Positions 8,657 through 23,312 of a stretch of DNA of 35,217 nucleotides are shown here, one piece after another. Each line of letters opens with the position of its first letter. Positions within the stretch are counted from its first letter, which is position 1. Location of the stretch: assembly GCA_030620655.1 (NCBI GenBank), contig JAUXEH010000001.1, positions 1-35,217 of the forward strand, given 5' to 3'. This stretch comes from Candidatus Aminicenantes bacterium. Lineage in GTDB: Bacteria > Acidobacteriota > Aminicenantia > Aminicenantales > Aminicenantaceae. Both the position numbers and the translations under genes were made by a program. The notes beneath the pieces were generated by a model. It saw only the letters and a list, made by a program, of their open reading frames with translations, was not told where the DNA came from and did no database searches.

Positions 8657-8691
8657 CCCGAATCCGGTCTATTTGTAATCGGCATCTTTTA

Positions 8692-8704
8692 TGAATAATC
8701 CAGG
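8692..8704 (-). repeat. Copy of the intergenic motif CCTGGATTATTCA (exact core)
   Basis: The plus strand reads TCGGCATCTTTTA-TGAATAATCCAGG. Located between the kinase stop and the OMP start. Confidence 0.8.
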
Positions 8705-8782
8705 CTAACTGAACTCTGCTCTCACGACTAAATGGGCGCATACCGTTATACATCAAGAAAAACTGGAATTTTTCAAAGAAAT

Positions 8783-9751
8783 ATGGAAAAATACGTTGCG
8801 ATGAAATTCCCAACCATTCGACTGATCACAGCCATGGCCGTGCTCCTGGCCGCCGTTTCCGTGCCGGCCCGGAGCGAGCGCGTGAGCCTCAAGTTCAGCT
8901 ACAGCACCAACGGGATAACCGGGAACGATATCAACACCTGGATCGATTCCCTCAATCTCCTGTGGCAGGGCTGGCGGAATGTCAACGGAGGCGACCTGCA
9001 GGGGCAGTTCGTGCCCATCAATTTTTCCAACGGCCTGGAGATCGAGCTTCGCATACCCTTATACAAGGGCCTGGCCATCAACCTGGCCGGCAGTTGGCTA
9101 ACCAGCTCCGAAGAAGGGACCGTCAGCTTCCAGCATGCCAGCGGTGCCCAAAGTGAGGAGCAGTACATCCAGAACAAAGTCAGGGCCGTGCCCCTAAAGA
9201 TCGGGTTCAGCTATGCCTTCGCGCTCCCGCCCTTTCCCAGGCTATCCCTGTTGGCGGGGGTGGGGCAGCACATCGTGCTGGTTACCTACGACAGCATCAA
9301 CAACTACAAATCGACCATCACGGACTTTGGCAGGGAGTTCACATACCATATCAACAAGGACAACAAGTACTCCTCCGAGTCGCTTGGGATCTACGCCAAT
9401 CTGGGAGCCGAACTGGAGCTCCTCGAGTTCATGGCCGTGGTGGTGGAAGGCGAGAAAGTCTGGAATCAAACCGACGGTTTCAAGGGCTCGTATCGTCATG
9501 AAGCGCTGGGATTTCCCGGTGGTGATTACGTACAAGCCGGCAATGCCTCCCTCTACTTCTACGAGAGCGATCACATCGGCACCGGGACTTACTACAGCTT
9601 CCTAGCCGGGCATGATAAGAAACCCGAAGGCCAGCTGGAGTACCCTCTGGACGGGGGACCCATACCCGGGCCGGCGGTCAAGAACGTCCGTCAGGGAGAG
9701 CTGGATTTCAATACCATCTCCTTCAAGATCGGGATTCGATTTAAATTCTGA
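8783..9751 (+). CDS. Outer-membrane beta-barrel protein (family not recognised)
   Basis: Signal peptide (MKFPTIRLITAMAVLLAAVSVPARS), alternating-hydrophobicity strands, and a C-terminal IGIRFKF ending in Phe. The start is ambiguous (8732, 8783 or 8801). Confidence 0.6.
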   Translation: MEKYVAMKFPTIRLITAMAVLLAAVSVPARSERVSLKFSYSTNGITGNDINTWIDSLNLLWQGWRNVNGGDLQGQFVPINFSNGLEIELRIPLYKGLAINLAGSWLTSSEEGTVSFQHASGAQSEEQYIQNKVRAVPLKIGFSYAFALPPFPRLSLLAGVGQHIVLVTYDSINNYKSTITDFGREFTYHINKDNKYSSESLGIYANLGAELELLEFMAVVVEGEKVWNQTDGFKGSYRHEALGFPGGDYVQAGNASLYFYESDHIGTGTYYSFLAGHDKKPEGQLEYPLDGGPIPGPAVKNVRQGELDFNTISFKIGIRFKF

Positions 9752-9771
9752 CAGGACATAAGGTACCCAGG

Positions 9772-10278
9772 ATGTCAAAAATTCTCGTGACCTATTACAG
9801 CCGGACCGACAATACAAAACAGGTCGCCGAAGCGATCTACGATGCCTTGGAAGGGGAAAAGAGTATAAAACCCTTCCAGGAGCTGGCAGACCGGGAGAGC
9901 GATGCTTTCAGCCTGGTGTTTGCAGGCTTCCCCGTGCATTCTCACAGCGTCCCCTATGCCGTGGAGGAGTTCCTGAAATCCACACCTGAGGGCAAGAAGA
10001 TCGCCTTTTTCTCGACTCACGGCTCCCTCACCGGCAGCCGGCTGTCCAGAGAAGCCCTGGAAAACGCGACGGTGCTTTCTGCGAAAGCCCGTATGCTGGG
10101 CACGTTTTCCTGCCGGGGCAGGGTATCTCCTCAGGCTCTTGAAGTCCTGATGAAATCCCCGGAGCACAGGGCGTGGGCCGAGATGGCGGCCTCAGCCGCA
10201 ACGCATCCGGATGCGAGCGACCTGGCGGATGCCCGAGACTTCGCCGCCTGGATCCTCACCCTCGCCGCCCAAGACTGA
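9772..10278 (+). CDS. Flavodoxin-family protein
   Basis: N-terminal ILVTYYSRTDNTKQVAEAI FMN-phosphate loop pattern. 168 aa. Confidence 0.75.
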   Translation: MSKILVTYYSRTDNTKQVAEAIYDALEGEKSIKPFQELADRESDAFSLVFAGFPVHSHSVPYAVEEFLKSTPEGKKIAFFSTHGSLTGSRLSREALENATVLSAKARMLGTFSCRGRVSPQALEVLMKSPEHRAWAEMAASAATHPDASDLADARDFAAWILTLAAQD

Positions 10279-10309
10279 GGCAGCGCGGGAGCCAGGCCTT
10301 ATCCCTGCC

Positions 10310-10717
10310 CTACTCTTTTTGCTTGAGCTCGATCAGCACTCCGTTGAAACTCTGAGGATGGACAAAGGCGACACGGCTTCCCCCGGCTCCGGCTACGGGG
10401 CTCTCATGGATCAAGTCGGCCTCCCCGCTCTTCAACTCCTCCAGGGCCAGTTCGATATCATCGACCTCGAAGCAAAAATGATGGATCCCTTCACCGTTTT
10501 TTGCCAGGAAACGGGCGACAGGAGAGTCGTCGCCCAGCGGAGATATCAGCTCCAGGGCCGGGCTGCCCGGGGCTCTCAGCTTGCACAGACGCACGCCTCT
10601 TTCCGGGAGCTCTTCGATCCCACCGGCTTGCATCCCCAAGGAAGCGACCCAACGTGCCGCACTGTCTTCGATGTCTTCGACCGCGATCGCGACGTGGTCC
10701 ATTTTCGTGATTCCCAT
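10310..10717 (-). CDS. mce: Methylmalonyl-CoA epimerase (VOC/glyoxalase fold)
   Basis: MDHVAIAVEDI, LELISPLGDDSPVARFL, GIHHFCFEVDDI and VAFVHP blocks. Start taken at the ATG at 10717, with GGAGG 7 nt upstream. Adjacent to meaB. Confidence 0.8.
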   Translation of the reverse strand: MGITKMDHVAIAVEDIEDSAARWVASLGMQAGGIEELPERGVRLCKLRAPGSPALELISPLGDDSPVARFLAKNGEGIHHFCFEVDDIELALEELKSGEADLIHESPVAGAGGSRVAFVHPQSFNGVLIELKQKE

Positions 10718-10718
10718 C

Positions 10719-11654
10719 TCACACCTCCCGGTTCTCCCGCAGGACACGATCGGCTAGTGTATAGGGGTCGACTTCCCTTCGGCAGATCCTGTCTACCAGG
10801 GTCTCGAATTCGGCCGCGGGCAGCGCGTCGGTCAATCTTTCGGCGATCTTCTCACGCAGAATCATCTTGAACCTCCAGCTGATCCTGCGTCTCTGCCTCT
10901 GTTCCCGTTCCTCAGGTGATTGTGACCGGAGGCTGCGCTGCATCTCTTCCCAGAGGGCCTCGATCCCCTCTCCGCTGGTAGCGACGGTCTTCATGACCAG
11001 CGGTGGGATCACGCCCCTCTGCCCTCCTGAGTCCAGCAGGGCATTGAGCCTCCGTTCCATGGTACCGCTGTCAGGTGAATCGGCTTTGTTGAGGACAAAA
11101 ATATCGGCGATCTCCATGATCCCGGCTTTGAAGATCTGGACGTCGTCACCGGCATCCGGTGTAAGGATCACGAGGACCAGCTCCGCCAGCCGGACCACCT
11201 CCACCTCATCCTGGCCCACACCCACCGTCTCCACCAGGACCAGGTCCTTCCCCGCCGCCTCCAGCAGCGCGACCACATCGCCCGTGGCCCTGGCCAGCCC
11301 GCCCAAGTAGCCGCGTGTGGCCATGCTGCGGATGAAGACACTGGGATCGGCGCTGTGCCGCATCATGCGGATCCGGTCTCCCAGCACCGCTCCTCCTGTG
11401 AATGGACTGGAGGGATCCACTGCCACGATGCCGAGGTTCTTGCCGGATTGAGTGATCAGGCCGGCCAGCCCATCCACCAGGGTGCTCTTCCCCGAACCGG
11501 GCGCTCCGGTTATTCCCACCACCACTGACCTGCCGGTGTGGGGAAATACAGCCCGCAACAGATCCTGGGATGTCGGATGACGGTTCTCCACGAGGGTTAT
11601 GGCCCGTGCGAGCGCTCGTGTGTCTCCCCGTAAGAGCTCTTGTGCGATCTTCAT
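10719..11654 (-). CDS. meaB: Methylmalonyl-CoA mutase-associated GTPase MeaB/ArgK
   Basis: P-loop GITGAPGSGKSTL, VETVGVGQ (switch II) and NKAD specificity motif. 311 aa. Confidence 0.9.
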   Translation of the reverse strand: MKIAQELLRGDTRALARAITLVENRHPTSQDLLRAVFPHTGRSVVVGITGAPGSGKSTLVDGLAGLITQSGKNLGIVAVDPSSPFTGGAVLGDRIRMMRHSADPSVFIRSMATRGYLGGLARATGDVVALLEAAGKDLVLVETVGVGQDEVEVVRLAELVLVILTPDAGDDVQIFKAGIMEIADIFVLNKADSPDSGTMERRLNALLDSGGQRGVIPPLVMKTVATSGEGIEALWEEMQRSLRSQSPEEREQRQRRRISWRFKMILREKIAERLTDALPAAEFETLVDRICRREVDPYTLADRVLRENREV

Positions 11655-11697
11655 CGAAACAACGATCCGGGGCCTGGAAAAGGGCTCAGGCTGTGAA

Positions 11698-12840
11698 TCA
11701 GGACTTCAGAACCTGCTGAGCGATGATCCACCGCTGGATCTCCGAGGTTCCCTCGCCGAGGGTAGCCAGCTTGGAGTCCCGGTACAGCTTTTCGACCGGA
11801 TATTCCTTGATGAAGCCATAGCCTCCGTGGATCTGGACCGCCACCGATGAGGCTTTGACCGCCAGTTCACTGGCGAACAGCTTGGCCATGGCCGACTCTT
11901 TCGGGATCCTTTTGCCCTGGTCCTCCAGGAACGCGGCGCGGAAGGTGAGCAGGCGGGCGGCATCCAGCTCGGTGTAACCATCGGCCAGCATCCACTGGAT
12001 AGCCTGGAAATTGGCGATGGGCTGACCGAACTGCTCCCTTTCCTTGGCGTACTGCAACGATGCATCCAGCGCTCCAGCGGCGATGCCCAGGGAAAAGCCG
12101 GCGATGCTGACGCGGCCCCCATCCAGGACGGCCATGGCCTGGCGGTATCCCTGGCCCTCTTCTCCCAGGAGGGACTCTTCCGGCAGCTCAAGGTCCTCGA
12201 ACACGAGCTCGGATGTGTCCGCCGCACGGACGCCGAGTTTGTCTTCCTTTTTCCCCACCTTGAATCCGGGCATGCCCTTTTCCACGATAAAGGTGGATAT
12301 GCCTTTGCGGCCCTGTTCCGGGTCGGTGATCGCCATGATTACCTGGATCTCTGCCAGGGACCCGTTGGTGATGAACATCTTGCTTCCGTTCATCACCCAG
12401 CCGTCTCCTTTTTTTACCGCCCGGGTCTTCATGGCGGCCGCATCCGAGCCAGCCGCGGCCTCTGTGAGCGCCCAGGCCCCAAGCGTCTCTCCTGTGGCCA
12501 ACCGGGGAAGGTATTTCTTCTTCTGCTCCTCTGAACCGAAGAGGTTGATGTGGTTGGAACAGAGGGAGTTGTGGGCGGCTACCACCAGCCCCACAGAAGG
12601 ATCGACCTTGGAGAGTTCTTCCAGGATGATGACATAATCGACGTTGGAATAGCCGGCCCCTTCGAATTCAGGAGGGATGATGATCCCCAGCAGCCCCATA
12701 TCCGCCAGCTTGCGCGTGAATTCCGCGGGCCATTCTCCCCGGTCGTCGCAGTCCCTGACATAGGGTTGAATCTCTTTCTGGGCGAACTTCCGGATGGAGT
12801 CCTTCAGGAGCCCCTGTTCCTCGGTCAGCAGAAAATCCAT
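11698..12840 (-). CDS. Acyl-CoA dehydrogenase
   Basis: MDFLLTEEQ start with AAGGAG 6 nt upstream. Typical ACAD blocks (ALTEAAAGSDAAAM, NGSKMFITNG, QIHGGYGFIKEYPVEKLYRDSK). The track ORF extends 17 codons upstream without support. Confidence 0.9.
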   Translation of the reverse strand: MDFLLTEEQGLLKDSIRKFAQKEIQPYVRDCDDRGEWPAEFTRKLADMGLLGIIIPPEFEGAGYSNVDYVIILEELSKVDPSVGLVVAAHNSLCSNHINLFGSEEQKKKYLPRLATGETLGAWALTEAAAGSDAAAMKTRAVKKGDGWVMNGSKMFITNGSLAEIQVIMAITDPEQGRKGISTFIVEKGMPGFKVGKKEDKLGVRAADTSELVFEDLELPEESLLGEEGQGYRQAMAVLDGGRVSIAGFSLGIAAGALDASLQYAKEREQFGQPIANFQAIQWMLADGYTELDAARLLTFRAAFLEDQGKRIPKESAMAKLFASELAVKASSVAVQIHGGYGFIKEYPVEKLYRDSKLATLGEGTSEIQRWIIAQQVLKS

Positions 12841-12992
12841 GATCGCTCCTTCCCTGAGTTTGATGTATGCCCATCTTATCCACCACAACAAGAATTATCA
12901 AGCACATTTTCCCACTCTCATTCAAGGATTGAAAGGTTTCGAAAATGCCTCCTCAATTGACAACCCGGAGCATTTCCTCTACAGTTGAAAAC

Positions 12993-13250
12993 ATGCTGAT
13001 GAAGCTCTTCGCCTACGCTCTATTGGCCTACATCATCTATCTGATCGGCCGTTTCTTTTCCGCGATCTCCAGAGGGCGCAAACAAGTCGCCCCCCGGCAG
13101 GAAATATCGGGCACCATGGTCAAGGATGAGACCTGCAACACCTATCTGCCAAAGGATGAGGCGATCAGGGAAATGTATCAGGGACAGGAGTTCTTTTTCT
13201 GTTCTGAGGAGTGCCGTCAAAAATTCCTCCAGACTAAAAAGCCCCATTGA
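12993..13250 (+). CDS. Membrane-anchored YHS/TRASH-like zinc-ribbon protein
   Basis: N-terminal TM helix (LFAYALLAYIIYLIGRFF), then C-x(n)-FFFCSEECRQKF, which is typical of YHS/TRASH domains. The start is ambiguous (12945, 12993 or 12999). Confidence 0.55.
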   Translation: MLMKLFAYALLAYIIYLIGRFFSAISRGRKQVAPRQEISGTMVKDETCNTYLPKDEAIREMYQGQEFFFCSEECRQKFLQTKKPH

Positions 13251-13278
13251 TCCGCAATAATTATCAGATTTGGCTTAT

Positions 13279-13291
13279 CCTGGATAATTCA
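13279..13291 (+). repeat. Copy of the intergenic motif (CCTGGATAATTCA, one mismatch)
   Basis: Read directly. Lies in the convergent gap between the TRASH gene stop (13250) and the cupin gene stop (13333). Confidence 0.7.
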
Positions 13292-13332
13292 CGAGTCGAG
13301 GTTGCCGTAGCAGGTTATGTGAGATTGAAGGT

Positions 13333-13656
13333 TTACGGGGCGATGCTCCAGGCATCGATGGTCACCGCAGCCTCCAGAGTGATCTGTTCATGCGTGAAGT
13401 TGGAGGGCACGATATAGGAGTCGCCCGCCTCGATGATGATCTCCTCCCGTTCCCCCTCGTGTTCGATGATGATCTTCTGTTTTCCTGAGAGGATGGTTGT
13501 CACCTGCTCGTAGGAGTGTTTGTGAGCGGGGACCGTTGCCCCAATCGTATATTCAAAACGGGCCATCAACACATCTTTCCCGCCGGCCAGCGTATGCCGC
13601 ATGACACCTTCGAACATCTCCACTTCCGGTTGATCTTCTTTGTTTATCTTGAACAT
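13333..13656 (-). CDS. Cupin-domain protein
   Basis: 107 aa with a metal-site pattern, GATVPAHKHSYEQ ... and a second strand pair GDSYIVPSNFTHE. Confidence 0.7.
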   Translation of the reverse strand: MFKINKEDQPEVEMFEGVMRHTLAGGKDVLMARFEYTIGATVPAHKHSYEQVTTILSGKQKIIIEHEGEREEIIIEAGDSYIVPSNFTHEQITLEAAVTIDAWSIAP

Positions 13657-13683
13657 ATTTGTCCTCCCATCCCGCCGCCCGGC

Positions 13684-13956
13684 CTACCAGGTGATCTTGA
13701 AATCCTCGAACTCACCTTCGATTTCCAGCCACTCGACATCGGCATCCTCCACATAAGCCTGAGGCGGCCCCTGCTTGACGGCGGCGATCAGGCGTTTCAC
13801 CTGCTCTTTCTCACCTTCCGCCATGATCTCGACCCGGCCGTCGAAGAGGTTCTTCACCCAGCCCGTCACTCCCAGAAGGACGGCTTCTCGCTGGGAATAA
13901 GCCCGGAAGAACACACCCTGGACACGGCCGGATACCACGATATGTGCTCTTACCAT
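13684..13956 (-). CDS. acyP: Acylphosphatase
   Basis: Signature VSGRVQGVFFR and GWVKNLFDGRVE. About 90 aa from the ATG at 13956. The track's GTG at 13983 is an alternative start. Confidence 0.85.
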   Translation of the reverse strand: MVRAHIVVSGRVQGVFFRAYSQREAVLLGVTGWVKNLFDGRVEIMAEGEKEQVKRLIAAVKQGPPQAYVEDADVEWLEIEGEFEDFKITW

Positions 13957-14155
13957 CCTCTCGATCGCAAGCCATGTTATCACAATCAGTTTTCCAGGTA
14001 CAGCCTGGTTAGGATCAGATCCGGCGTCCAGGCGGCCGATCCTTCATCTATTTTAGTCGAGATTCACAGCCATAATACGCGATTCCCGGATCGGACCCCG
14101 CCTCGACATCACAAGCCGTTTACGCTCTCTCCTGGATCTGATAGGATGTAGAATC

Positions 14156-14929
14156 ATGGCAACCGAAGTCCTCATATCGCTGGCAGGCTTTGATCCCACT
14201 GCCGGAGCCGGAGTGGCCCTGGATCTCAAAGTCTTCGCGAGTCACGGCTTTCAGGGGATGGGTTTGTGTACCTCGATCACGGTACAGAACACCCAAGCCG
14301 TCAAGCGTCTGTACTGTCTCCCCTTTGAACTGGTGCTGGAGCAGTACCGGGCCCTGGCGGAAGATGTCCCTATCCGGGGTATCAAGGTCGGAATGCTGGG
14401 CTGCCGAGAACACATCCTGACCGTCACCGGGATCCTGGAACGAAGTGCCGACATACCTGCGGTCATCGATCCGGTCCTGCGCTCCAGCTCGGGGACATGG
14501 CTCCTGGGACAGGATGCAGTGGGTGATTATATGGCCGCCCTGGCGGGGCGCATCACGCTTCTCACACCGAACTTGGCGGAGGCCTCCTGGATCACCGGAT
14601 CAGAGGTATCCGGCCTGAAGGATATGCACGCGGCGGCCCGGCAGATCTATCAGGACCACCGCATCCCGAGCCTGATAAAGGGAGGCCACCTTGCGGGGGA
14701 CGCGGCAGATCTCCTTTACGATGGGTCATCGTTTCATGTCTTTGAAAAGGAAAAGGTCCCGGGAAATGTGCACGGGACAGGGTGTTTTTTTTCCTCTTCC
14801 GTCTTGTGTCTCCTGGTTCAGGGACATCCCCTGGGCGAAGCCTGCCGCCTGGCGGGAGACCAGACCCTGGAAGCCATACGCAGCGCGGTCCCCGTGGGAA
14901 AGGGACAGAGGCTTATCCTCCCGAAATGA
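14156..14929 (+). CDS. thiD: Hydroxymethylpyrimidine / phosphomethylpyrimidine kinase
   Basis: AGFDPTAGAGVALDLKVF, IKVGML, LLTPNLAEA and VHGTGC blocks of the ThiD/PdxK ribokinase-like family. Confidence 0.85.
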   Translation: MATEVLISLAGFDPTAGAGVALDLKVFASHGFQGMGLCTSITVQNTQAVKRLYCLPFELVLEQYRALAEDVPIRGIKVGMLGCREHILTVTGILERSADIPAVIDPVLRSSSGTWLLGQDAVGDYMAALAGRITLLTPNLAEASWITGSEVSGLKDMHAAARQIYQDHRIPSLIKGGHLAGDAADLLYDGSSFHVFEKEKVPGNVHGTGCFFSSSVLCLLVQGHPLGEACRLAGDQTLEAIRSAVPVGKGQRLILPK

Positions 14930-14976
14930 CCCCGCCCCGGATCAATCCGCATATTTTCATTTGACGGCCTCTAACG

Positions 14977-14989
14977 TGAATAATCCAGG
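14977..14989 (-). repeat. Copy of the intergenic motif CCTGGATTATTCA (exact; 15-mer CCTGGATTATTCACG)
   Basis: The minus strand reads TAA-CCTGGATTATTCACGT immediately after the stop of the 14990 gene. Lies in the convergent gap with thiD. Confidence 0.8.
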
Positions 14990-15976
14990 TTAGAACAAGG
15001 ACGGTTCCGAATCAATGACCTTATCCGCATTGTTCAAAACCTCCTCAGGGAAAACGATACCCTGCTTTTCCGCCATTTTCAAGTTGATGTGCAGCATGAC
15101 CCTGTCCATGTGCTGAAAAGAAATATTTTCAGGGCTTTCGCCGTTCTTGATCCTCAGGGCGATCTTCCCCGCCCTGTGACCGATGTCATAGAAATCCCAC
15201 CCCAATGCGGCGCATGCGCCCAACTCCGTGTGGAATAGGGCTCCCCCGAACAATGGGATCTCGTTGTCCACGGCCACACGGCCCACGGCCTGAAATGCCT
15301 GGTTGATGGTGTTGTCGGAGATCTGATAGATAACGTCGATCTTCTTGTTGATCAAGATCTGCGCTGATAACAGCACGTCACTGGCGTTCGCTATCGGGAC
15401 GGCTATCATCTCAAGCCCCAGCAAACCCGCTTCCTCCCTGGCTTTGTCCTTATAAAAAAGGGAGTTGAGCTCGGATGGCGTCCAAAGTGTACCGACACGT
15501 TTGATCCCGGGCATCAGGGACTTAATGAAGGCCAGGCTCTGGCCTATCGGCCCCTCGGAAGACACGCCGCTGACATTCCGCAGATGGTCTTCCGCCGACA
15601 CGCCGGCGCCTGCCAGATAGGGGTTAGCGACCGAGGCGAAAACGATCGGGATTTCACTCGTGGCGTGAAGGGCTGCCTGGAGACTGGGTGTGGAAAGGGG
15701 CACGATCATATCCACCCTGCGGGCCACAAAGCTCTCAGCGATCCGCCAGATTTCTGGGATCTGCCCGCGCGCGCTTTCGACCAGGATCCGTATTTCCCGA
15801 CCGTCCACAAGCCCCTCTTCAGCCAGCGATTCCACAAAACCCCTGCGTGTCTCCGTCATCGTGGAAGCATCATTCACCTGCAGGATACCGATGGTGTAGA
15901 GTTCAGGCTGCGGGCTTTGACAGCCGTATAGAAGAAAAAGCGAGAGGGCGACGAAGCCCCATATCGGTATACGCAT
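14990..15976 (-). CDS. ABC-transporter substrate-binding lipoprotein (ABC_sub_bind / PF04392-like), with no cognate permease or ATPase nearby
   Basis: Start taken at MRIPIWGFVALSLFLLYGC (signal peptide plus lipobox-like LYGC). The periplasmic binding fold pattern resembles PF04392 family members. The track's upstream extension overlaps the divergent DUF72 gene. Confidence 0.7.
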   Translation of the reverse strand: MRIPIWGFVALSLFLLYGCQSPQPELYTIGILQVNDASTMTETRRGFVESLAEEGLVDGREIRILVESARGQIPEIWRIAESFVARRVDMIVPLSTPSLQAALHATSEIPIVFASVANPYLAGAGVSAEDHLRNVSGVSSEGPIGQSLAFIKSLMPGIKRVGTLWTPSELNSLFYKDKAREEAGLLGLEMIAVPIANASDVLLSAQILINKKIDVIYQISDNTINQAFQAVGRVAVDNEIPLFGGALFHTELGACAALGWDFYDIGHRAGKIALRIKNGESPENISFQHMDRVMLHINLKMAEKQGIVFPEEVLNNADKVIDSEPSLF

Positions 15977-16080
15977 GAAACGTGTTGGCAACAAGTCTTG
16001 AATATCATAAAGAAAAAACTCCTCGCTGACAAGGCCTTCCCACCAGCCCATGGCTGTCTTGGGGTCCGGTGTGTGGTACA

Positions 16081-16983
16081 ATGGAAAAGGCAATGGCGCA
16101 ATTTCACATTGGCACAGCGGGGTGGAGCTACCAGGACTGGGAAGGGATCGTCTATCCCGCCCAGAAGAGCACTGGCTTTCACGCCCTGGTGTTTCTGGCC
16201 GACTACATCAACCTGGTGGAGATCAACAGCACCTTCTACCGCCCGCCGGTCATGCGCGTGGCCTTGGCCTGGGTAAAAAAAGTCCAGCATCGACCGGATT
16301 TTCTGTTCGCCGTGAAGCTTCACCAGAACTTCACCCATGGGGACCGACGATTCACACAGAAAGATACTGACGAATTCAAACTCGGGATCGAGCCGCTCCA
16401 GTCTCACTCCCGGCTGGGTGCAATACTCATCCAGTTTCCCTGGTCGTTCAAGGATTCGGGGATGAACCGCGAGCATCTAGAGCGCATATTTCGAGCATTC
16501 CGCGACTATCCCCTGGCCCTGGAGGTCAGGCACGGCTCCTGGAACCGGCCCGATTTTTTCCTGTGGCTTCAATCCAACAAGGTCGGATTCTGCAATATCG
16601 ATCAACCGGTCATCAACGATTCCCTCTCCCCGACTTCGATCCAGACCCACCCGGATTTCACGTATGTGCGCCTCCACGGGCGCAACTATCAAAACTGGTT
16701 CAGCCAGAGCGCAGGCCGGGACGCCCGCTACAACTACCTGTACGGCGGGGAAGAACTCGACGAATGGGTAGAGCGCATCAAGGGGCTGGGAGAAAAAAGC
16801 CGCAACGTGTTCGTCGTCACCAACAATCACTATCAAGGACAGGCGCTGGCCAACGCACTTCAGATCAAGAACAAGCTCACCGGAGAAAAGGTCGATATCC
16901 CGTTGGACCTGATAAAGCGTTATCCGCTGCTGCGCAAAATCGTCAAGAAGATCGAAAAGGGACAGATCGATCTGTTCGAGTAG
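16081..16983 (+). CDS. DUF72 family protein
   Basis: FHIGTAGWSYQDWEGIVYP N-terminal hallmark, and VRLHGRN...WF...YNYLY later. The start could be 16081 or 16093. Confidence 0.8.
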   Translation: MEKAMAQFHIGTAGWSYQDWEGIVYPAQKSTGFHALVFLADYINLVEINSTFYRPPVMRVALAWVKKVQHRPDFLFAVKLHQNFTHGDRRFTQKDTDEFKLGIEPLQSHSRLGAILIQFPWSFKDSGMNREHLERIFRAFRDYPLALEVRHGSWNRPDFFLWLQSNKVGFCNIDQPVINDSLSPTSIQTHPDFTYVRLHGRNYQNWFSQSAGRDARYNYLYGGEELDEWVERIKGLGEKSRNVFVVTNNHYQGQALANALQIKNKLTGEKVDIPLDLIKRYPLLRKIVKKIEKGQIDLFE

Positions 16984-17074
16984 GCCATCCTCCGATCCTC
17001 AGCCCTTGAGGCAGAAGCAGTCGATGGAGATGAATTCGTCGAGGGATTTTCGTCCCGGCCACGATGCCTCCCAG

Positions 17075-17335
17075 TCAGACCCTGAGGAATTGAATGATAT
17101 CTTCGATATCCGGAAGCACCGGGATATCATAGGTCTTCACATAAACCACCTGTCCGTTCTCATCGAGGATGACCTTGGCCCGTTGCGAGAATCCCTGCTC
17201 TTCGCGAAACAGCCCGTAAGACCTCGCGACTTCTCCGTGCTGCCAAAAATCCGACAGCAGTTTGGTGTCCGCAATGCCAAGCTCCTTGGCCCAGGCATTC
17301 TTGCAGGGGACGCTGTCTACACTCAGCCCGGAGGG
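17075..17335 (-). pseudogene. 5'-truncated peroxiredoxin/redoxin (AhpC/TSA-like) remnant
   Basis: The C-terminal 85 or so residues (LSVDSVPCKNAWAKELG...LSDFWQHGEVARSYGLF...RAKVILDENGQVVYV) look like the second half of a thiol peroxidase. Upstream of about 17335 the reading frame runs into AT-rich hairpin repeats. No peroxidatic-Cys half is found in any frame before dnaE2. Confidence 0.5.
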
Positions 17336-17342
17336 TAAAAGA

Positions 17343-17600
17343 TGCCGACAATAAATATTGAATGCTCTTTGAATCTGAATTTGTCGGCAGCTTTTATGAA
17401 TGCTCCCGGAGCCGGGATTATTCACAGGCCGAGATTGGTACAGATGCAAGGCATGGCGGACGAAGCTGTGGTTTACCACCGCGAGTCCGACGTAACACAG
17501 CAGATGTGCCGAGATTCGGCCTGCCCGAAGGGTAAGAATTGCCGATGATTATAGAGAGGTAGTAAGAAAATATATCGGCAATTCTTATGAATGATCCCGG
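17343..17600. repeat. Repeat nest: two hairpin-plus-motif modules and an inverted pair of the motif
   Basis: Module 1: TGCCGACAA (17343-17351) / TTGTCGGCA (17381-17389), followed after 7 nt by TGAATGCTCCCGG (17397-17409). An inverted partner CCGGGATTATTCA follows at 17412-17424. Module 2: perfect 14-bp arms TAAGAATTGCCGAT (17533-17546) / ATCGGCAATTCTTA (17574-17587), followed directly by TGAATGATCCCGG (17588-17600), which also encodes the last codons and stop of dnaE2. Confidence 0.75.
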
Positions 17601-20389
17601 AAGGAGCAGTTGAAGGCTTTGAGCTCCCCCCTCCCCCCGCTGCGGATCTCGGCGCGCAGGAAACAGGCCGGCGGCGTGCCGGACGTCAGGCACCTGGTCT
17701 CGCCCACCCCTTCCAGCAGCCCGGTCTCATCCTCGAACAGGAAAAAATACTTGCGACCGCCGTTGACACCCTTGAGCCGGGCGTCGACCATCCGGACCAC
17801 CAGCTCCACCTCGCGACCGGCATATCTTTTCAGGTCCTTGATCCGGAGCTCCGGACGCTTCCCCTCGAACAGCACGAGCGAATCGCCCTCCGGGTCAAAG
17901 CCCAGGGATTCCACCAGCATCCGCTTTTTCTGCCTGGCGTTGAGGTCGGCGACCTCCCCTATGCCCTCGAGCCCGTGGAAATAGCGCAGGATCTGCTGGG
18001 TGCGCGTCGGTTCCAGCGAATCGAACGCGCCGGCTTTGATCAAAGCGAACAGTTCGGCTTTGGTCAGCGACACCCGCAGTAGTAAATCCTCGATGGAGCG
18101 GTAGGGCACGTCCCTGCGCTCCTCGAAGATCTTGTCCGCGGTCCGGACGGCCAGCCCCTTGATGGACAGCAGGCCCACCCGGATGCTTTTGCCCTCCACC
18201 TCGAAATGATAGCCGCTGCGCTGGACATCCGGACCCAGGATCCGGATCCCGCACCGTTTGGCCTCCTCGATGTATTCGGGCAGGCCGTAATAGCCACCGC
18301 AGGCGTTGAGCACCGCCGTGAGGTACGGCAGCGTGTGATGGGTCTTGAGATACACCGCCTGGTAGGCCATGTGGGCGTAGGAAGCGCTGTGGGCCTTGTT
18401 GAAGGAGTAGGAGGAAAATTTGTCCATGATGGCCCAGAGCCTTTTGACCTCTCCCGGAGTGTACCCGCGCGCGCCCGCCTCCTGGAAAAATTTCTCCTTG
18501 AAAGGCGTGTCCGCCCTCTTTTTCTTGAGGCCGCGCCGGAGCAGGTCGCCCTCCTCCGGCGGCATCCCGGCCACGCGGTCCGCGACCTGCATCACCTGCT
18601 CCTCGTACAGCAGCAGCCCCCCGGTCTCGGGCAGGACCCGGGACAGGAGAGGGTCGCGGGACACCTGCTTCCCCTCCCGGCCGCGGAGCAGCGTCTGCTT
18701 CATCCCGCTTTCGGTCGGCCCCGGCCGGATCAAGGCCAGGGCCTGGATCAGGTCATAGATGGTCTCCGGCCGCATGCGGCGGAGCAGGTTCATCATGGCC
18801 GGGCTCTCCACCTGAAAACAGCCGATGGTCTCTGCCTTCTGCAGCCGCCGGAAGGTGGGGCCGTCCCGCGGTGGGATGCTCCGGAGGTCGAGTGTTTTTC
18901 GCGTGCTCGAGATGGCGGCCAGCCCCCGCACGGACAGTAGATCGAGCTTGATGAGCTTGAGATCCTCAACCGCGTCCCGGTCAAAGTGTGACATGCGCAG
19001 GCCCTTGGCGGACTCCTGCAGCGGAAGGTACCGGCGGACCGGAGCGGGCGTGAGCAGCACGCCTCCCACATGCAGGGAAATCTCGCAGTATACCGAAGTC
19101 AGTTCCGAAGCGGCGGCCCAGATCTCCCCACATCCGGGCAGCGGCCGGTCCTTCTTCAGGTATTCGGGCTCCTCGAACATGGGGATCCGCCTGCTCATGG
19201 AACGGCCCTCGGCCGGCGGCAGCCCGAAGGCGCGGGCCGTCTCGTACAGGGCCGACCGGGCCCGGTAGTTCTTCAGACTGCACACGAAGGCAGCCCCGGT
19301 CCGGCCCCGGCCGTACGTGTCCAGGACATACTCCAGCACCCGGTCCCGCAGGCGCGAGTCGAAGTCCAAATCAAAATCCGGAGGGGCGTCCCGCCCCGAG
19401 TTGAGGAAGCGGGCGAAGTAGAGGTCGAAGGTGATGGGGCTGATGTGGGAGATCCCCAGGAGATAGGCCAGGAAGGAGGAGGCTCCCGAGCCCTTGAGGT
19501 TGTGAAGGATGCCCTGCCGGCGGGCGAACTGCACCACGTCGTGCACCACCAGGAAATAGGGCGCAAACCCCGATCTCTCCACCACCTCCAGTTCCATCCG
19601 GGCCCGCTTCCTCTCCTTCCAACTGAGATCCCTCCTCCCCCGAAGCTTCTCCATCACCACGTCCCGCAGTGGCGTGGGGAAAAGGCCTCCGGGAAGCTTG
19701 GGGACGATGTCGTCGAAGGTGAACCGGCACTTCTCGGCCACCTCGAAGGTCGCGCGGAAGAGCGGCTTGATACCGGGGCCGAACTTTTTCACCGCCAGAT
19801 GCGCCTGGTCAGGCCCTAAAAGCGGCATCCGGCGGCCTAAGCGGTCCCGCTCCGGAGGGAAGGGGATCTTTTTATGGATGGCATGCAGCAGGATAAGCCG
19901 CTCGGGATGGCGGAGAAACTTCAGGGGATGGGCCCAGACCGCAGGCAGGCCGTGCCTTTTGGACCAGGCCTTGACCGTTTTCAGGTTGAAGAAACCGCTC
20001 CCCAGATACAGATCCTCACCCAGGAGCGGCACCAGCTCCTCGGGGAAGTCACGGTCCTCCGGCCGGGGGATAAAGACGGTCACCAGCCCCCGGGTGCTGT
20101 TAACAGCACGCCCGTTGAGGGTTTCCATGAGGGTCCAGTATCCTTCCCGCTCCTTGACCAGGAACAGGAACGTCCGCCCCCCGAGTTCCAGCTCACATCC
20201 GAAAACAGGGCGGAGCCCACTGTCCTGTGCGGCCCTCTTCCAGCGTGCCCAGCCGTAGAGGTTCTCAAGATCAGAGAGCGCCGCCGCCGGGAGCTTCTCC
20301 CGGACGGCCCAGGCGGCCAGCTCCCGCAGCAGCACCCCTCCCCTCCCCTTGCTGTAGACGGAGTGCACCCGCAGCGGTATAAACATCAT
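17585..20389 (-). CDS. dnaE2: DNA polymerase III alpha-type subunit, short DnaE2/ImuC-like (error-prone) form
   Basis: 934 aa, shorter than replicative DnaE. N-terminal PHP-like start (LRVHSVYS), catalytic PDFDLDFD pair, KLDLLSVRGL and a C-terminal OB-like segment. Operon context with lexA and a Y-family polymerase. Confidence 0.8.
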   Translation of the reverse strand: MMFIPLRVHSVYSKGRGGVLLRELAAWAVREKLPAAALSDLENLYGWARWKRAAQDSGLRPVFGCELELGGRTFLFLVKEREGYWTLMETLNGRAVNSTRGLVTVFIPRPEDRDFPEELVPLLGEDLYLGSGFFNLKTVKAWSKRHGLPAVWAHPLKFLRHPERLILLHAIHKKIPFPPERDRLGRRMPLLGPDQAHLAVKKFGPGIKPLFRATFEVAEKCRFTFDDIVPKLPGGLFPTPLRDVVMEKLRGRRDLSWKERKRARMELEVVERSGFAPYFLVVHDVVQFARRQGILHNLKGSGASSFLAYLLGISHISPITFDLYFARFLNSGRDAPPDFDLDFDSRLRDRVLEYVLDTYGRGRTGAAFVCSLKNYRARSALYETARAFGLPPAEGRSMSRRIPMFEEPEYLKKDRPLPGCGEIWAAASELTSVYCEISLHVGGVLLTPAPVRRYLPLQESAKGLRMSHFDRDAVEDLKLIKLDLLSVRGLAAISSTRKTLDLRSIPPRDGPTFRRLQKAETIGCFQVESPAMMNLLRRMRPETIYDLIQALALIRPGPTESGMKQTLLRGREGKQVSRDPLLSRVLPETGGLLLYEEQVMQVADRVAGMPPEEGDLLRRGLKKKRADTPFKEKFFQEAGARGYTPGEVKRLWAIMDKFSSYSFNKAHSASYAHMAYQAVYLKTHHTLPYLTAVLNACGGYYGLPEYIEEAKRCGIRILGPDVQRSGYHFEVEGKSIRVGLLSIKGLAVRTADKIFEERRDVPYRSIEDLLLRVSLTKAELFALIKAGAFDSLEPTRTQQILRYFHGLEGIGEVADLNARQKKRMLVESLGFDPEGDSLVLFEGKRPELRIKDLKRYAGREVELVVRMVDARLKGVNGGRKYFFLFEDETGLLEGVGETRCLTSGTPPACFLRAEIRSGGRGELKAFNCSFRDHS

Positions 20390-20426
20390 CTCTCTACCTG
20401 CATCGACATTCTTTTGTCACTCCAAT

Positions 20427-20553
20427 ACCTGGGTCATCTGCGGGTCGAGATGGCTGCAGCGGCAAGGAAGCGGTCCGTGAGGCTGTAGTGAACTACGCCG
20501 AACGGGCCGCAACGATGCCGATGTGGTGAGATCGACCCGCAGATGACCCAGGT
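20427..20553. repeat. 127-bp nested hairpin element with 22-bp perfect terminal inverted repeats
   Basis: ACCTGGGTCATCTGCGGGTCGA (20427-20448) is the exact reverse complement of 20532-20553. The second tier is GCGGTCCGT (20470-20478) / ACGGGCCGC (20502-20510), with one T/G position. The innermost hairpin is 20481-20499. The right arm abuts the stop codon of the polymerase IV gene. Confidence 0.85.
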
Positions 20554-21773
20554 CATTTGGTGAGGGAGGCGGTCTTGAGAACAAACCCCTGCCGCTTCTC
20601 CAAGCTGTAGATCTCGTCCAGCATCCTCTCGCGCGCCGTGAGCAGCGAGCCGAAACCGTACTTCTCCCGCACCCGGTCCATGGCCAACCCCAGGCGCTCC
20701 TGACGTGGCGAATAGGGCTCGAACAGGGAGAGGGGCCGACCCCGGACCAGGTCGGAAGCCTTGACCCCCACCAGGCGCAGCGAGAGGCGCGACCCGGTGT
20801 AAAGCTCGCCGAACAGCTCCCGGGCGATGCGGAAGATCTCGCCCATATCCTGCAGGGGTGAGATCAGGAGCCGGCGGCGGCCCTCGGTCTTGAAATCGGA
20901 ATACCGGACCTTGACCTCCACGATGTGGGCGAAAAGGCGGTCCTTGCGCAGGGCCAGGGTCATCCGGTCACAGAGGTAGGCCAGATGGGCCAGGAACAGT
21001 CGCTGCTCCCAGATATCCTCCAGGAAGGTGGTCTCCCGGGACACGGACTTGGGCACGGCGGGGGGGGCCAGGGGCCGGCTGTCCACGCCCCGGGACTGGA
21101 GGTAGATCTCCTCGCCGTTGAGGCCGAACAGCGAACGCAGAGTGGCGCGCGGCAGGCCCCACAGGTCGCCGATCCGCTGGATGTTCAGCATGCGCAGGAT
21201 GACCTGGGCCTTGGGCCCGATCCCCGGCAGCAGCTCGATCCCCAGGTCCTTGAGGAATTCCTCTTCCCCGCCGGGCGGGATCTCTAACAGCCCCCCCGGT
21301 TTCGCCCGGTTGGTGGCCAGCTTGGCCAGGGTCTTGTTGGGTCCCACCCCCACCGAGACCGTCAGCCCCAGTTCCCGCTCCACCCGCCGCTTGATATCCT
21401 GCACGGCCCGGGAAAAGGACGGATAGAGCGCCCGGCATCGGGTGAGGTCGAGATAGGCCTCGTCCAGGGAGGCGGACTCCACATCCGGGGTGTATTGGGA
21501 AAGAATCCGGAGAAAATTCTCCGAAAACGCGCTGTAGACCTGGTAGTTCCCCCTTATGAACACCCCGTGGGGGCACAGCTGGTGCGCCTGGCGGAGGGAC
21601 ATACCGGAGTGGACCCCGTATTTACGGGCGGCGTAAGACGCCGTGGAGGCCACGCCCCGCTCATGGGGGAGGCCGCCCACGATCACCGGTTTTCCCTTGA
21701 GGGAAGGGTCGAGCAGTTCTTCCACCGCGGCAAAAAAAGCATCGATATCGATGTGGACGATACACCTTCGCAT
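20553..21773 (-). CDS. dinB: Y-family DNA polymerase (DinB/Pol IV type, catalytic residues present) in the ImuB position of the cassette
   Basis: HIDIDAFFAAVE, SYAARKYGVHSGM and SLDEAYLDLT, so the acidic triad is retained. 406 aa. Starts 10 nt after the lexA stop. Confidence 0.85.
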   Translation of the reverse strand: MRRCIVHIDIDAFFAAVEELLDPSLKGKPVIVGGLPHERGVASTASYAARKYGVHSGMSLRQAHQLCPHGVFIRGNYQVYSAFSENFLRILSQYTPDVESASLDEAYLDLTRCRALYPSFSRAVQDIKRRVERELGLTVSVGVGPNKTLAKLATNRAKPGGLLEIPPGGEEEFLKDLGIELLPGIGPKAQVILRMLNIQRIGDLWGLPRATLRSLFGLNGEEIYLQSRGVDSRPLAPPAVPKSVSRETTFLEDIWEQRLFLAHLAYLCDRMTLALRKDRLFAHIVEVKVRYSDFKTEGRRRLLISPLQDMGEIFRIARELFGELYTGSRLSLRLVGVKASDLVRGRPLSLFEPYSPRQERLGLAMDRVREKYGFGSLLTARERMLDEIYSLEKRQGFVLKTASLTK

Positions 21774-21783
21774 CAGGCTGAGG

Positions 21784-22401
21784 TCAGTATTTCCGCATCA
21801 CCCCGATCACCCGCCCCAGGATCCGCAGCTGCGAGACCTCGATGGGTTCAAACTCCGGGTTCTCGGGCATGAGGGCGATCCGCCCCGCCTCAAGCCTCAG
21901 CCTCTTCAGGGTGACGGACCCGTCCTCCAGGAAAGCGATCACCATCTCGCCGGAGCTGGCGGTGTTGGTGCGCTCCACCAGCACGCGGTCGCCGTCATCG
22001 ATATAGGCATCCACCATGCTTTTTCCCTCGACCTGCACGCAGAAGACATTGTCTCGCTTACGGCCCAACATCCATTCCGGCACCTCCACGGCCTCGTGGG
22101 AAAGGTCGATCGCCTCCCGAGGGTGGCCCGCCGGGACAAACCCCAGCAGGGGTACCTTGACATGCGCTTCCACGGCGGTGGGAAAACCGGTGGGGCTCAA
22201 CTCTCCACTCTGTTTCCGGACATATCCCTTCTTTTCCAGGCTCCGGACATGCTTGAAAACGGCCGAAGGGTTGCTGATGTGCAGGATCTCCCCCAACTGC
22301 CGGATGGTGGGGGAATACCCTCGCTCCAGGATGAAGTCCTTGATGGCCTGCAGGACCTCTTCCTGCCTCTCCGTCAGTTCAATGCGCATTTTGTTTACCA
22401 T
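21784..22401 (-). CDS. lexA: LexA repressor (S24 autopeptidase)
   Basis: N-terminal winged helix (LTERQEEVLQAIKDFILERGYSPTIRQLGEIL), Ala-Gly cleavage site (VPAGHP), Ser in GKSMVD and Lys in VTLKRL. Three in-frame starts are possible (GTG 22410, ATG 22401, ATG 22389). AAGGTG precedes the ATG at 22401. Confidence 0.9.
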   Translation of the reverse strand: MVNKMRIELTERQEEVLQAIKDFILERGYSPTIRQLGEILHISNPSAVFKHVRSLEKKGYVRKQSGELSPTGFPTAVEAHVKVPLLGFVPAGHPREAIDLSHEAVEVPEWMLGRKRDNVFCVQVEGKSMVDAYIDDGDRVLVERTNTASSGEMVIAFLEDGSVTLKRLRLEAGRIALMPENPEFEPIEVSQLRILGRVIGVMRKY

Positions 22402-22410
22402 TTTGTTCAC
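22387..22410. repeat. Perfectly phased 12-bp tandem duplication at the lexA start (CATTTTGTTTAC | CATTTTGTTCAC)
   Basis: 11 of 12 positions identical. On the coding strand it reads GTGAACAAAATG GTAAACAAAATG, which produces the alternative starts (V/M)NKM-VNKM. Confidence 0.8.
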
Positions 22411-22417
22411 CTTTTAT

Positions 22418-22446
22418 ACAATAGGACCCGCCCCGGGGTTTGTCAA
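22418..22446 (-). promoter_or_regulatory. Candidate lexA promoter (TTGACA-N17-TATTGT)
   Basis: On the minus strand: -35 TTGACA (22446-22441), a 17-nt spacer containing the palindrome CCCCGGGG, and -10 TATTGT (22423-22418). Confidence 0.4.
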
Positions 22447-22486
22447 GTGTTTTTTCCGTGTTTTTCTGCTATAGTAACTCACCTGG

Positions 22487-22499
22487 CCTGGATTATTCA
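22487..22499 (+). repeat. Copy of the intergenic motif CCTGGATTATTCA (exact; 15-mer CCTGGATTATTCACG)
   Basis: Lies 11 nt downstream of a TATAGT hexamer (22470-22475) and 40 nt upstream of the SDR ATG (22540). Confidence 0.8.
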
Positions 22500-22539
22500 C
22501 GTTTATGACGGGTTCAGGTTCACTCACGGAGAACACAGA

Positions 22540-23256
22540 ATGAGCGAGAGAGTCGTCCTGGTCACCGGCAGCAACCGCGGGCTGGGGCGGGACATCGCCC
22601 TGACCCTGGCGGAAACGGCTTCAGGCGTGGCCGTGCATTATCGTCGGGACAGGGCCGCCGCCGAGGAAACGGTCCGGGATATCGAAAAAAAAGGCCGTCC
22701 GGCCGCGGCCCTGGCCGCCGACCTGACCGTCGAAGAGGAGGCGGCCCGGCTGATCCGGAAGACGGAAGACCGCTTCGGCCGCCTCGACATCCTGGTCAAC
22801 AACTACGGCCCTATCCTGGAAAAGGGCTGGGCCGAGCTCACCCGGGTCGACTGGGACCGCATCCTGCAGGCGAACCTCTACAGCGCCTGGTTCTGCATGA
22901 AGGCCGCGCTGCCCGGCATGCGCCGGCGGGAATGGGGGCGCATCATCAACATCGGGTACAGCCGGGTTGAGCAGCTGACCGCGTTCCAGAAAATCCTACC
23001 CTATGCCGTGGCCAAGACCGGCCTCCTGCTCCTGACCCGTTCGGCCGCGGCTTCGGAGGCGGCCGCCAACATCACCGTGAACATGGTCTCGCCCGGTCTC
23101 CTGGAAGGTGGGGTGCGGCCCAAGGATCCGGACATCCCGGCCGGGCGGCTGGGGCGGTTAGAGGACGTGGCGCATGCGGTGCGCTACCTCTCTTCCCCGG
23201 AGGCCGCCTACGTCACCGGGATCAACCTGACGGTGGCCGGCGGCTGGAAGCTGTGA
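22540..23256 (+). CDS. Short-chain dehydrogenase/reductase (FabG-like)
   Basis: VLVTGSNRGLG (TGxxxGxG), NNYG, and YAVAKTG (YxxxK). 238 aa. The track ORF's long 5' extension (21643-22539) is antisense to lexA and is rejected. Confidence 0.85.
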   Translation: MSERVVLVTGSNRGLGRDIALTLAETASGVAVHYRRDRAAAEETVRDIEKKGRPAAALAADLTVEEEAARLIRKTEDRFGRLDILVNNYGPILEKGWAELTRVDWDRILQANLYSAWFCMKAALPGMRRREWGRIINIGYSRVEQLTAFQKILPYAVAKTGLLLLTRSAAASEAAANITVNMVSPGLLEGGVRPKDPDIPAGRLGRLEDVAHAVRYLSSPEAAYVTGINLTVAGGWKL

Positions 23257-23286
23257 CATTGACTTTAACAGGCGCAGAATATATAA

Positions 23287-23299
23287 CCTGGATTATTCA
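23287..23299 (+). repeat. Copy of the intergenic motif CCTGGATTATTCA (exact; 15-mer CCTGGATTATTCACG)
   Basis: Directly follows a TTGACT-N17-TATAAC promoter-like element (23262-23290). Lies 13 nt upstream of the tdh ATG. Confidence 0.8.
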
Positions 23300-23312
23300 C
23301 GAAGGGTAATAA

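Follow-up and report, generated by a model that had tools for sequence, protein, structure and literature searches.

The short motif that recurs between genes in a 35-kb stretch of a Candidatus Aminicenantes genome (contig JAUXEH010000001.1; hereafter the window, to whose 35 kb all element counts refer) is very probably the terminal inverted repeat (TIR) shared by a family of MITEs (miniature inverted-repeat transposable elements). The ends of these elements match those of insertion sequences (ISs) of the IS1380 family, and the window holds one complete copy, one variant, and six remnants. The recurring motif is ordinary mobile-DNA debris and not the site of a regulator, although the elements include a hairpin module whose degree of conservation is out of the ordinary.

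The 15-mer CCTGGATTATTCACG was found by the window motif scan to be exact at 14975-14989 (minus strand), 22487-22501 (plus), and 23287-23301 (plus), to carry one mismatch at 13279 (plus), and to carry two mismatches at 8690 (minus) and 17412 (plus). The three exact copies and the one-mismatch copy lie where a first-pass annotation of this DNA, made from the letters alone, had placed them. Its claim that the repeat exceeds chance also holds, since six matches with up to three mismatches occur in the window against 0.95 expected, a number that none of 100 dinucleotide shuffles reached. The CCGGG variants were likewise recovered, with three mismatches in 13 at 17397-17409 (minus), one at 17412-17424 (plus), and two at 17588-17600 (minus), as was an (A/T)CGGC(A/C) element at a fixed distance of 7 nt, which emerged as a repeat family in the window repeat search. 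Two weaker look-alikes (3844 and 25845) do not rise above chance, and the element profile described below has no match there; a calculation assuming uniform base composition puts the chance expectation for 35 kb at about nine 13-mers with three mismatches or fewer.

The nature of the motif follows from its occurrence elsewhere. The exact 15-mer was searched in one genome per species across 185,579 species, and at least 120 loci were listed (L-numbers in the following). It ends elements in records of Acidobacteriota (including Aminicenantes-type metagenome-assembled genomes, MAGs), Cyanobacteria, Planctomycetota, Kiritimatiellae, and Chloroflexi, and its exact recurrence in many MAGs of several phyla disposes of the earlier description as "genome-specific". 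Elements of about 1.6 kb in L112 and L076 (Acidobacteriota) and in L022 and L061 (Cyanobacteria) have the exact 15-mer as their outermost sequence on the left and close on the right with the inverted motif (TGAATAATCCAGG or a near match). The flanks of these four elements are identical 4-bp direct repeats, CTAA/CTAA in three cases and CTAG/CTAG in one. Two of the four autonomous loci, L112 and L022, had their transposase open reading frame (ORF) scored. The single ORF of each (437-449 amino acids) matches Pfam DDE_Tnp_1_4 (PF13701) with E-values of 4e-136 and 3e-120, respectively, and the NCBIfam equivalog "IS1380 family transposase" (NF033539) with 364 and 341 bits against a cut-off of 180. 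Once the transposase had been typed as IS1380, the IS5 family with its YTAR target, IS200/IS605 ends, and IS110 targets were dropped as candidates. An apparent full IS in L108, an Aminicenantes MAG locus with ends 1.57 kb apart, was rejected as well: it consists of two separate MITE ends with ordinary ORFs between them, none of which resembles a transposase.

Non-coding elements of about 130-300 bp, with the motif at one end and its inverted copy at the other, occur in many further loci. Identical 4-bp sequences flank at least 17 of them (140-290 bp in length), mostly TTAA, TTAG, and CTAA, with GTGA/GTGA also seen; ATAG/ATAG flanks are found in L014. As these flanks are direct repeats rather than reverse complements, they represent target site duplications (TSDs) situated outside the inverted repeat. 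Non-coding elements of 170-300 bp are very frequent in Aminicenantes-type MAGs, and a AMINICENANTES-type full-length MITE of about 250 bp occurs in MAGs labelled Candidatus Aminicenantes as well as in Third Party Annotation (TPA) MAGs labelled "uncultured Eubacteriales". Its order is target duplication, A, X, small hairpin, B, spacer, B', A', target duplication. Here, A stands for the terminal repeat CCTGGATTATTCACG, X for a hairpin of rod-like shape that measures about 100 nt, and B for the sub-terminal box TAAAAAATGCCGAT; the small hairpin reads CC(C)GAAGGG, the spacer between B and B' is AT-rich and about 90 nt long, B' is ATCGGCATTTTTTA, and A' is TGAATAATTCAGG. The terminal-repeat ends of the family are also written CCTGGATTATTCA. 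At the left end, A and B are parted by X and lie about 110 bp apart, whereas B' and A' are adjacent at the right end and form a contiguous 27-nt repeat, which is what the first-pass annotation had perceived as (A/T)CGGC(A/C) seven nucleotides from the motif. All 46 copies that span the hairpin module in related loci lie outside ORFs of at least 100 amino acids, with one possible exception.

Features that define a MITE are found together: TIRs in the window and in dozens of related copies, 4-bp TSDs in at least 17 related elements, small size (32-189 bp in the window, about 250 bp in the MAGs), absence of coding capacity, multiple copies in intergenic positions, and an autonomous element with the same termini. 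Because an IS1380 transposase is encoded by the relatives and none was reported among the ORFs scanned in the window, the window elements are filed as non-autonomous derivatives and not as IS copies.

A profile was built from 14 full-length Aminicenantes-type MITEs of about 250 bp and run on the window with nhmmer. The window resolves into eight elements, one complete (189 bp), one variant (125 bp), and six that are truncated, internally deleted, or reduced to a solo end:

8675..8704, plus strand: solo right MITE end, B' (ATCGGCATCTTTTA) then A' (TGAATAATCCAGG), then CTAA; 18 nt past the histidine-kinase stop codon and 28 nt before the start codon of the outer-membrane protein; profile positions 224-253, E 4e-5.
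13279..13314, plus strand: 36-bp internally deleted remnant consisting of A (one mismatch), the first 18 nt of X, and ...GCAGG; direct repeats TTAT/TTAT at 13275-13278 and 13315-13318; located where the YHS and cupin genes converge; 13279-13311 matches profile positions 1-33, E 9e-8.
14937..14989, minus strand: degraded short element filling the convergent gap between the ThiD and ABC-binding-protein genes; exact A at 14975-14989 (minus), B-like box at 14946-14958 (three mismatches), possible diverged far end at 14937-14951 (9/15), far boundary uncertain; flanked by CTAA, the TAA being at the same time the binding-protein stop codon (CTAA/CCTGG junction); nhmmer covers the 15-mer only, E 0.19.
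17326..17409, plus strand: 5'-truncated element; small hairpin GCCCGGAGGG, B at 17336-17348, 35-nt loop, B' at 17384-17396, A' at 17397-17409; 17326-17361 matches profile positions 111-146, E 4e-4, and 17377-17406 positions 221-250, E 0.013.
17412..17600, plus strand: complete 189-bp MITE; A at 17412-17426, X at 17425-17528, small hairpin at about 17523-17532, B at 17533-17546, loop, B' at 17574-17587, A' at 17588-17600; 17413-17556 matches profile positions 2-144, E 1e-29, and the right end matches at 17568-17599, E 0.004.
20428..20552, plus strand: 125-bp variant MITE whose perfect 15/15 inverted ends CCTGGGTCATCTGCG directly enclose X; adjoins the Y-family polymerase stop codon and sits 38 nt upstream of where dnaE2 starts; its strand is opposite to that of the operon; nhmmer match at 20429-20540, E 4e-15.
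22487..22518, plus strand: 32-bp mini element; exact A, TTTA, and a diverged A' (TGACGGGTTCAGG, 9/13), right boundary inferred; in the divergent lexA / short-chain dehydrogenase (SDR) intergenic region, 12 nt after a TATAGT hexamer.
23287..23335, plus strand: remnant lacking X; exact A, CGAAGGG, B (TAATAAATGTCGA, two mismatches), and the start of the MITE interior (ATTATGAATAGAAAG), right boundary approximate; weak nhmmer match at 23301-23346; profile positions 115-160, E 0.018, and positions 1-16, E 0.078.

The inverted ends of the complete copy are CCGGGATTATTCA and, at the far end in reverse complement, CCGGGATCATTCA. This copy scores 98.3 bits with a covariance model of X and folds with -96.8 kcal/mol (z -10.4); the 125-bp variant, whose ends are 10/15 identical to the motif, scores 88.9 bits and folds with -100.1 kcal/mol (z -12.4). 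The good copies in the earlier list of eight sites have been recovered, the one given as 8692-8704 (minus) being the A' of the solo right end, but the complete though diverged copy at 20428-20552, which the window repeat search also brought out as an inverted repeat, had been overlooked. Mini elements of the type A-spacer-A' comparable to that at 22487 occur in L070, L082, L004, and L110, and the interior ATTATGAATAGAAAG of the remnant at 23287 is the same as that in the full-length copy of L013. In the truncated element at 17326, B and B' form a hairpin that has A/T runs to its left and right.

If the autonomous relatives are taken as a guide, a DDE transposase of the IS1380 family that is encoded elsewhere would recognise the 13-15-bp terminal repeat A and probably also the adjacent 14-bp sub-terminal box B. 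Insertion would occur at a TA-containing tetranucleotide, mostly TTAA, TTAG, CTAA, or CTAG, with duplication of those 4 bp. Insertions within genes would presumably be lost, leaving copies to build up where genes end or converge and a short way downstream of promoters. The elements would also place very stable hairpins, including B/B' with its A/T runs, in untranslated regions. In a genome of 59% G+C, TA-containing sites should be concentrated in stop codons and -10-like boxes, which could explain why copies abut stop codons and -10-like hexamers. TAA or TAG almost always stands before the motif in the non-coding 15-mer loci. The positional pattern noted by the first-pass annotation (stop codons, -10-like hexamers, convergent gaps) could follow from insertion at TA tetranucleotides, and a regulatory role is not required.

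Several observations weigh against this interpretation. No transposase family was reported by Pfam for the window ORFs scanned, so that mobilisation in the source genome can only be presumed and the copies may all be fossils; nor do the matches listed include an autonomous element with these ends in Aminicenantes-type MAGs. A clean target duplication is seen in one window copy only (TTAT/TTAT at 13279-13314), and the complete copies at 17412-17600 and 20428-20552 have none. The copies at 14975, 22487, and 23287 were identified mainly by the 15-mer and short adjoining similarity, with uncertain boundaries, and the element at 22487-22518 shows no matching target duplication (flanks CTGG and TTCA).

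Further observations on the related loci may be recorded here. The same MITE of about 250 bp was found in the "uncultured Eubacteriales" TPA MAGs L003, L008, L011, L015, L033, L046, L048, L055, and L062, and likewise in L077, L081, L084, L089, L097, L101, L105, L109, and L118. Three window proteins are 57-67% identical to proteins in two MAG loci; these loci belong to "uncultured Eubacteriales" MAGs, whose label looks like a placeholder or an error. On the strength of this identity, the window probably stems from a relative of these lineages with a higher G+C content. In L008, the motif lies 7 nt upstream of the start of an aminotransferase ortholog and is missing at the window ortholog (1483-2673); at 66% amino acid identity, the two are too distant to define an empty site. 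In the Kiritimatiellae MAG L058, a 232-bp element (4460-4691) combines the same 15-mer end and CTAA/CTAA flanks with a hairpin of the X type (39.5 bits). More than one phylum hence carries the composite element, suggesting that it has spread horizontally or is of old origin. In several MITE copies (L015:2635-2904, L094:10-175, L097:773-1039, L062:2471-2743, and L121:2413-2701), a further short repeated insert (CCAACCCGCCCCACCCTAAC... or, as the complement, GGTTAGGTTGGGTCGG...) breaks up the X hairpin, suggesting that a second, even smaller repeat is nested in the MITE. A minority of the matches listed are chance occurrences in conserved coding sequence, the rest being non-coding. Such coincidental coding matches form two groups, L005, L016, L024, L025, L107, L113, and L115 on the one hand and L002, L035, L045, L047, and L057 on the other. 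One recurrent case encodes ...YLDYSR, in a gene which we take to be that of the glycogen-branching enzyme, and the other falls in an apparently conserved cyanobacterial gene. Having nothing to do with the transposon family, these matches would swell a naive count of the motif.

No Rfam family was matched in the window apart from a tRNA, and six loci with canonical elements yielded one tRNA and one sub-threshold chance match only. Neither the terminal sequence nor the composite element or its hairpin module was found in the searchable literature, and no title or abstract joining IS1380 and MITE described this element family. The possibility that the conserved extension of the motif represents a 5' leader or riboswitch of orthologous genes was considered and rejected, as the apparent starts (MAIKIKN..., MSIMNRK...) lie inside full-length MITEs with target duplications.

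The genes around the copies were typed by Pfam. The window encodes a histidine kinase (4787-8656), an outer-membrane beta-barrel protein (a weak match, below the Pfam cut-off), flavodoxin, MeaB, an acyl-CoA dehydrogenase, a YHS-domain protein, a cupin, ThiD, an ABC substrate-binding protein, a DUF72 protein, an SDR, an epimerase-type dehydrogenase, and an aminotransferase, among others. A tRNA-Pro (CGG) lies at the left window edge (23-99); it is the sole Rfam match and was called tRNA-Pro by ARAGORN. On the minus strand, 17585-22410 is occupied by a cassette of the SOS-mutagenesis type, comprising lexA, a Y-family polymerase with IMS domains, and dnaE2. A MITE copy or remnant is found at every junction of this cassette (17326-17600, 20428-20552, and 22487-22518), namely upstream of lexA, in the polymerase/dnaE2 gap, and, as two copies, after dnaE2, so that four of the eight window elements reside here. 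The stretch of 18-24 kb has a G+C content of 0.60-0.65, above that of most of the remaining window.

Some copies reach into reading frames of the host. The overlap of dnaE2 with the copy at 17588-17600, claimed in the first-pass annotation, is borne out: the last four codons of dnaE2, RDHS (...FRDHS*), and its TAA stop codon lie on the minus strand inside A'/B' of the 189-bp copy. An unannotated ORF at 17006-17338 has its stop codon within GGGTAA of the truncated copy. In the epimerase/dehydrogenase gene, both candidate starts (23313 and 23322) and a Shine-Dalgarno-like GAAGGG are contained in the remnant at 23287, which itself lies just after ATATAA. The stop codon of dnaE2 appears to be derived from an element, as do a start codon and a Shine-Dalgarno-like sequence of the epimerase gene. 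Members of the IS1380 family such as ISEcp1 provide outward promoters. A candidate of this kind, found by a consensus scan, is located at 23319-23292 on the minus strand (TCGACA, 16 nt, AATAAT; 10/12); it consists wholly of MITE sequence (B and A) and reads outward from the left end. With loops longer than the 3-8 nt that the terminator scan of the window allows, the B/B' hairpins were not called by it, and a function of these hairpins as terminators is a conjecture.

The alternative that survives best adds a layer to the MITE interpretation instead of replacing it. It accepts the origin of the copies as MITEs and proposes that X is a functional single-stranded element, most likely RNA, and that copies persist because the host or the element selects for its structure. 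X might then serve as an mRNA stabiliser or processing site, as a terminator or insulator together with B/B', or as a control structure of the transposase-leader type. In support of this proposal, 30 distinct X copies fit one consensus rod of 35 pairs, 27 of which show double compensatory changes; 95.1% of cells are paired as against 84.5% in column shuffles (the observed value was reached in none of 500), and shifting the 3' partners by one to three columns lowers the figure to 30-39%. As the copies share master elements and are not independent, such shuffle controls overstate significance. On the A-to-B strand of X, G-U/U-G pairs outnumber A-C/C-A pairs by 129 to 18. Nearly half of the G-U count stems from three nearly fixed positions, without which the ratio is about 67 to 18 (our own count from the table). 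This bias hints at selection on one single strand, possibly RNA, and would not be given by a DNA duplex or cruciform. Nucleotides of the internal loops are conserved as well (GAGGC / AACGAAG and GAA / GAA), and a tandem G-A/A-G motif is present. Where the neighbouring genes lie in tandem, the element shares the direction of both in 15 cases and opposes them in 4, counts that may include non-independent copies of related genomes. Of the two X-bearing window copies, however, that at 20428-20552 is antisense to the lexA-polymerase-dnaE2 genes.

The X-type module in the Kiritimatiellae MITE of L058 is a further point in favour of a functional X, whereas palindromic interiors are common in MITEs generally. 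Moreover, X is never detached from the terminal repeat: its covariance model matches only directly after A, in the window and in the loci including L058, although these loci had been selected for containing A. That X acts in this way on top of a MITE origin is accordingly possible but doubtful. It can be put forward tentatively, as an idea that we would not expect to hold, that X is a previously undescribed strand-specific module of structured RNA or single-stranded DNA which is spread by IS1380-type MITEs and kept by selection. Under this proposal, its range would take in Aminicenantes-type genomes and at least one further phylum, and selection would keep it, for instance, as a portable stabiliser of mRNA ends, a processing site, a terminator cassette, or an inherited transposase-leader control.

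The first-pass annotation had offered three options for the motif, of which the comparison with a MITE end proved apt; "REP-like" (repetitive extragenic palindromic) in the sense of REP-associated tyrosine transposases (RAYTs), "operator for a global regulator", and "uptake-type signal" found no support. In the operator model, the 15-mer is bound by a global transcription factor, for example the LexA encoded beside one copy, and the copies mark its regulon. The two copies between -10-like hexamers and start codons, the location of one of the copies in the lexA / SDR divergent region, and the weak imperfect palindrome in the core TGGAT-T-ATTCA (8/11, our own count) would fit such a model. Yet the same 15-mer ends transposase-bearing elements with target duplications in several phyla, and conservation continues past the motif through an element of about 250 bp. 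The copies at 13279, 14975, 17397, and 17588 are situated in convergent gaps or past stop codons, where an operator makes no sense, and the adjacent genes are unrelated in function. We regard an operator as highly improbable.

The same applies, with scarcely any probability left, to a REP-type repeat moved by a RAYT (an IS200/IS605-like Y1 transposase) or a DNA-uptake sequence. REPs and the uptake sequences of Neisseria are short, abundant, extragenic repeats, as are the repeats described here, some inverted pairs of which form hairpins after genes. A REP, however, is a palindromic unit of 20-40 nt that lacks a target duplication and long inverted termini and is tied to a Y1 transposase. The present elements share with REPs their shortness, abundance, extragenic location, and hairpin formation, but they have TIRs and 4-bp target duplications, and their autonomous partners encode an IS1380 DDE transposase instead of Y1. 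The co-occurring RAYT/Y1 transposase that had been suggested as a companion was not among the families reported by Pfam for the window ORFs scanned. An uptake sequence should be limited to a single competent lineage and should be common within genes as well, whereas the motif spans phyla and avoids ORFs; given the role of the motif as a transposon end in several phyla, this idea is unnecessary. A sigma-54 promoter, an extended -10 element, complementarity to the 16S rRNA 3' end, and an integron attC site were discarded by eye for unfitting spacing or context.

MITEs and the IS1380 family are well known, and the present element is a further member whose main value lies in annotation. A candidate global regulatory motif is replaced by a MITE family with an IS1380-type partner in a poorly studied uncultured clade, in which masking the elements should help gene calling. 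In the SOS mutagenesis cassette, the elements create very stable hairpins in intergenic regions. The strand-biased X module is the one feature that goes beyond ordinary MITE debris; if X did act as RNA, it would constitute another case of transposons spreading ready-made RNA structures across bacterial genomes.

Among known systems, the IS1380 family is described in ISfinder by inverted repeats of about 15 bp that start with CC and by direct repeats of 4-5 bp. The family described here agrees with it in that the autonomous relatives bearing the 15-mer encode its DDE transposase, the ends are about 15 bp long and start with CC, and the direct repeats are short; it differs in that the window copies measure 30-190 bp and lack a transposase. 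The bacterial MITEs, exemplified by Correia elements of Neisseria, enterobacterial ERIC/IRU, pneumococcal RUP/BOX, and bcr1 of Bacillus cereus, often insert at gene ends and can donate terminators, promoters, and RNA processing sites. As far as their features are general knowledge, they resemble the present elements in being about 100-250 bp long, non-coding, intergenic, and multicopy, with inverted ends, TA-containing duplications, and long hairpins. No sequence relationship exists, and the IS1380 parentage, the composite architecture, and the Aminicenantes-type and other uncultured hosts set the present family apart. The ends of the eukaryotic transposon piggyBac consist of terminal and sub-terminal repeats with unequal spacers. 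By analogy, the spacing of A and B, about 110 bp apart on the left and adjacent on the right, and the 4-bp duplication of TTAA type would recall this arrangement, whereas the relaxed target (TTAA, TTAG, CTAA, CTAG, and others), the bacterial hosts, and the lack of a transposase in the window differ from it. IS1380 transposases are considered the prokaryotic outgroup or relatives of piggyBac (PMC10813416). Within the IS1380 family, the left inverted repeat of ISEcp1, CCTAGATTCTACGT (PMC6061673), is identical to the motif at 9 of 14 positions (our own count), and IS1247 possesses inverted repeats of 16 and 13 bp (PMC3281130). Both IS1247 and ISEcp1 generate target duplications of 5 bp (PMC3281130, PMC6061673), in contrast to the 4-bp duplication with a TA core that characterises the elements described here.

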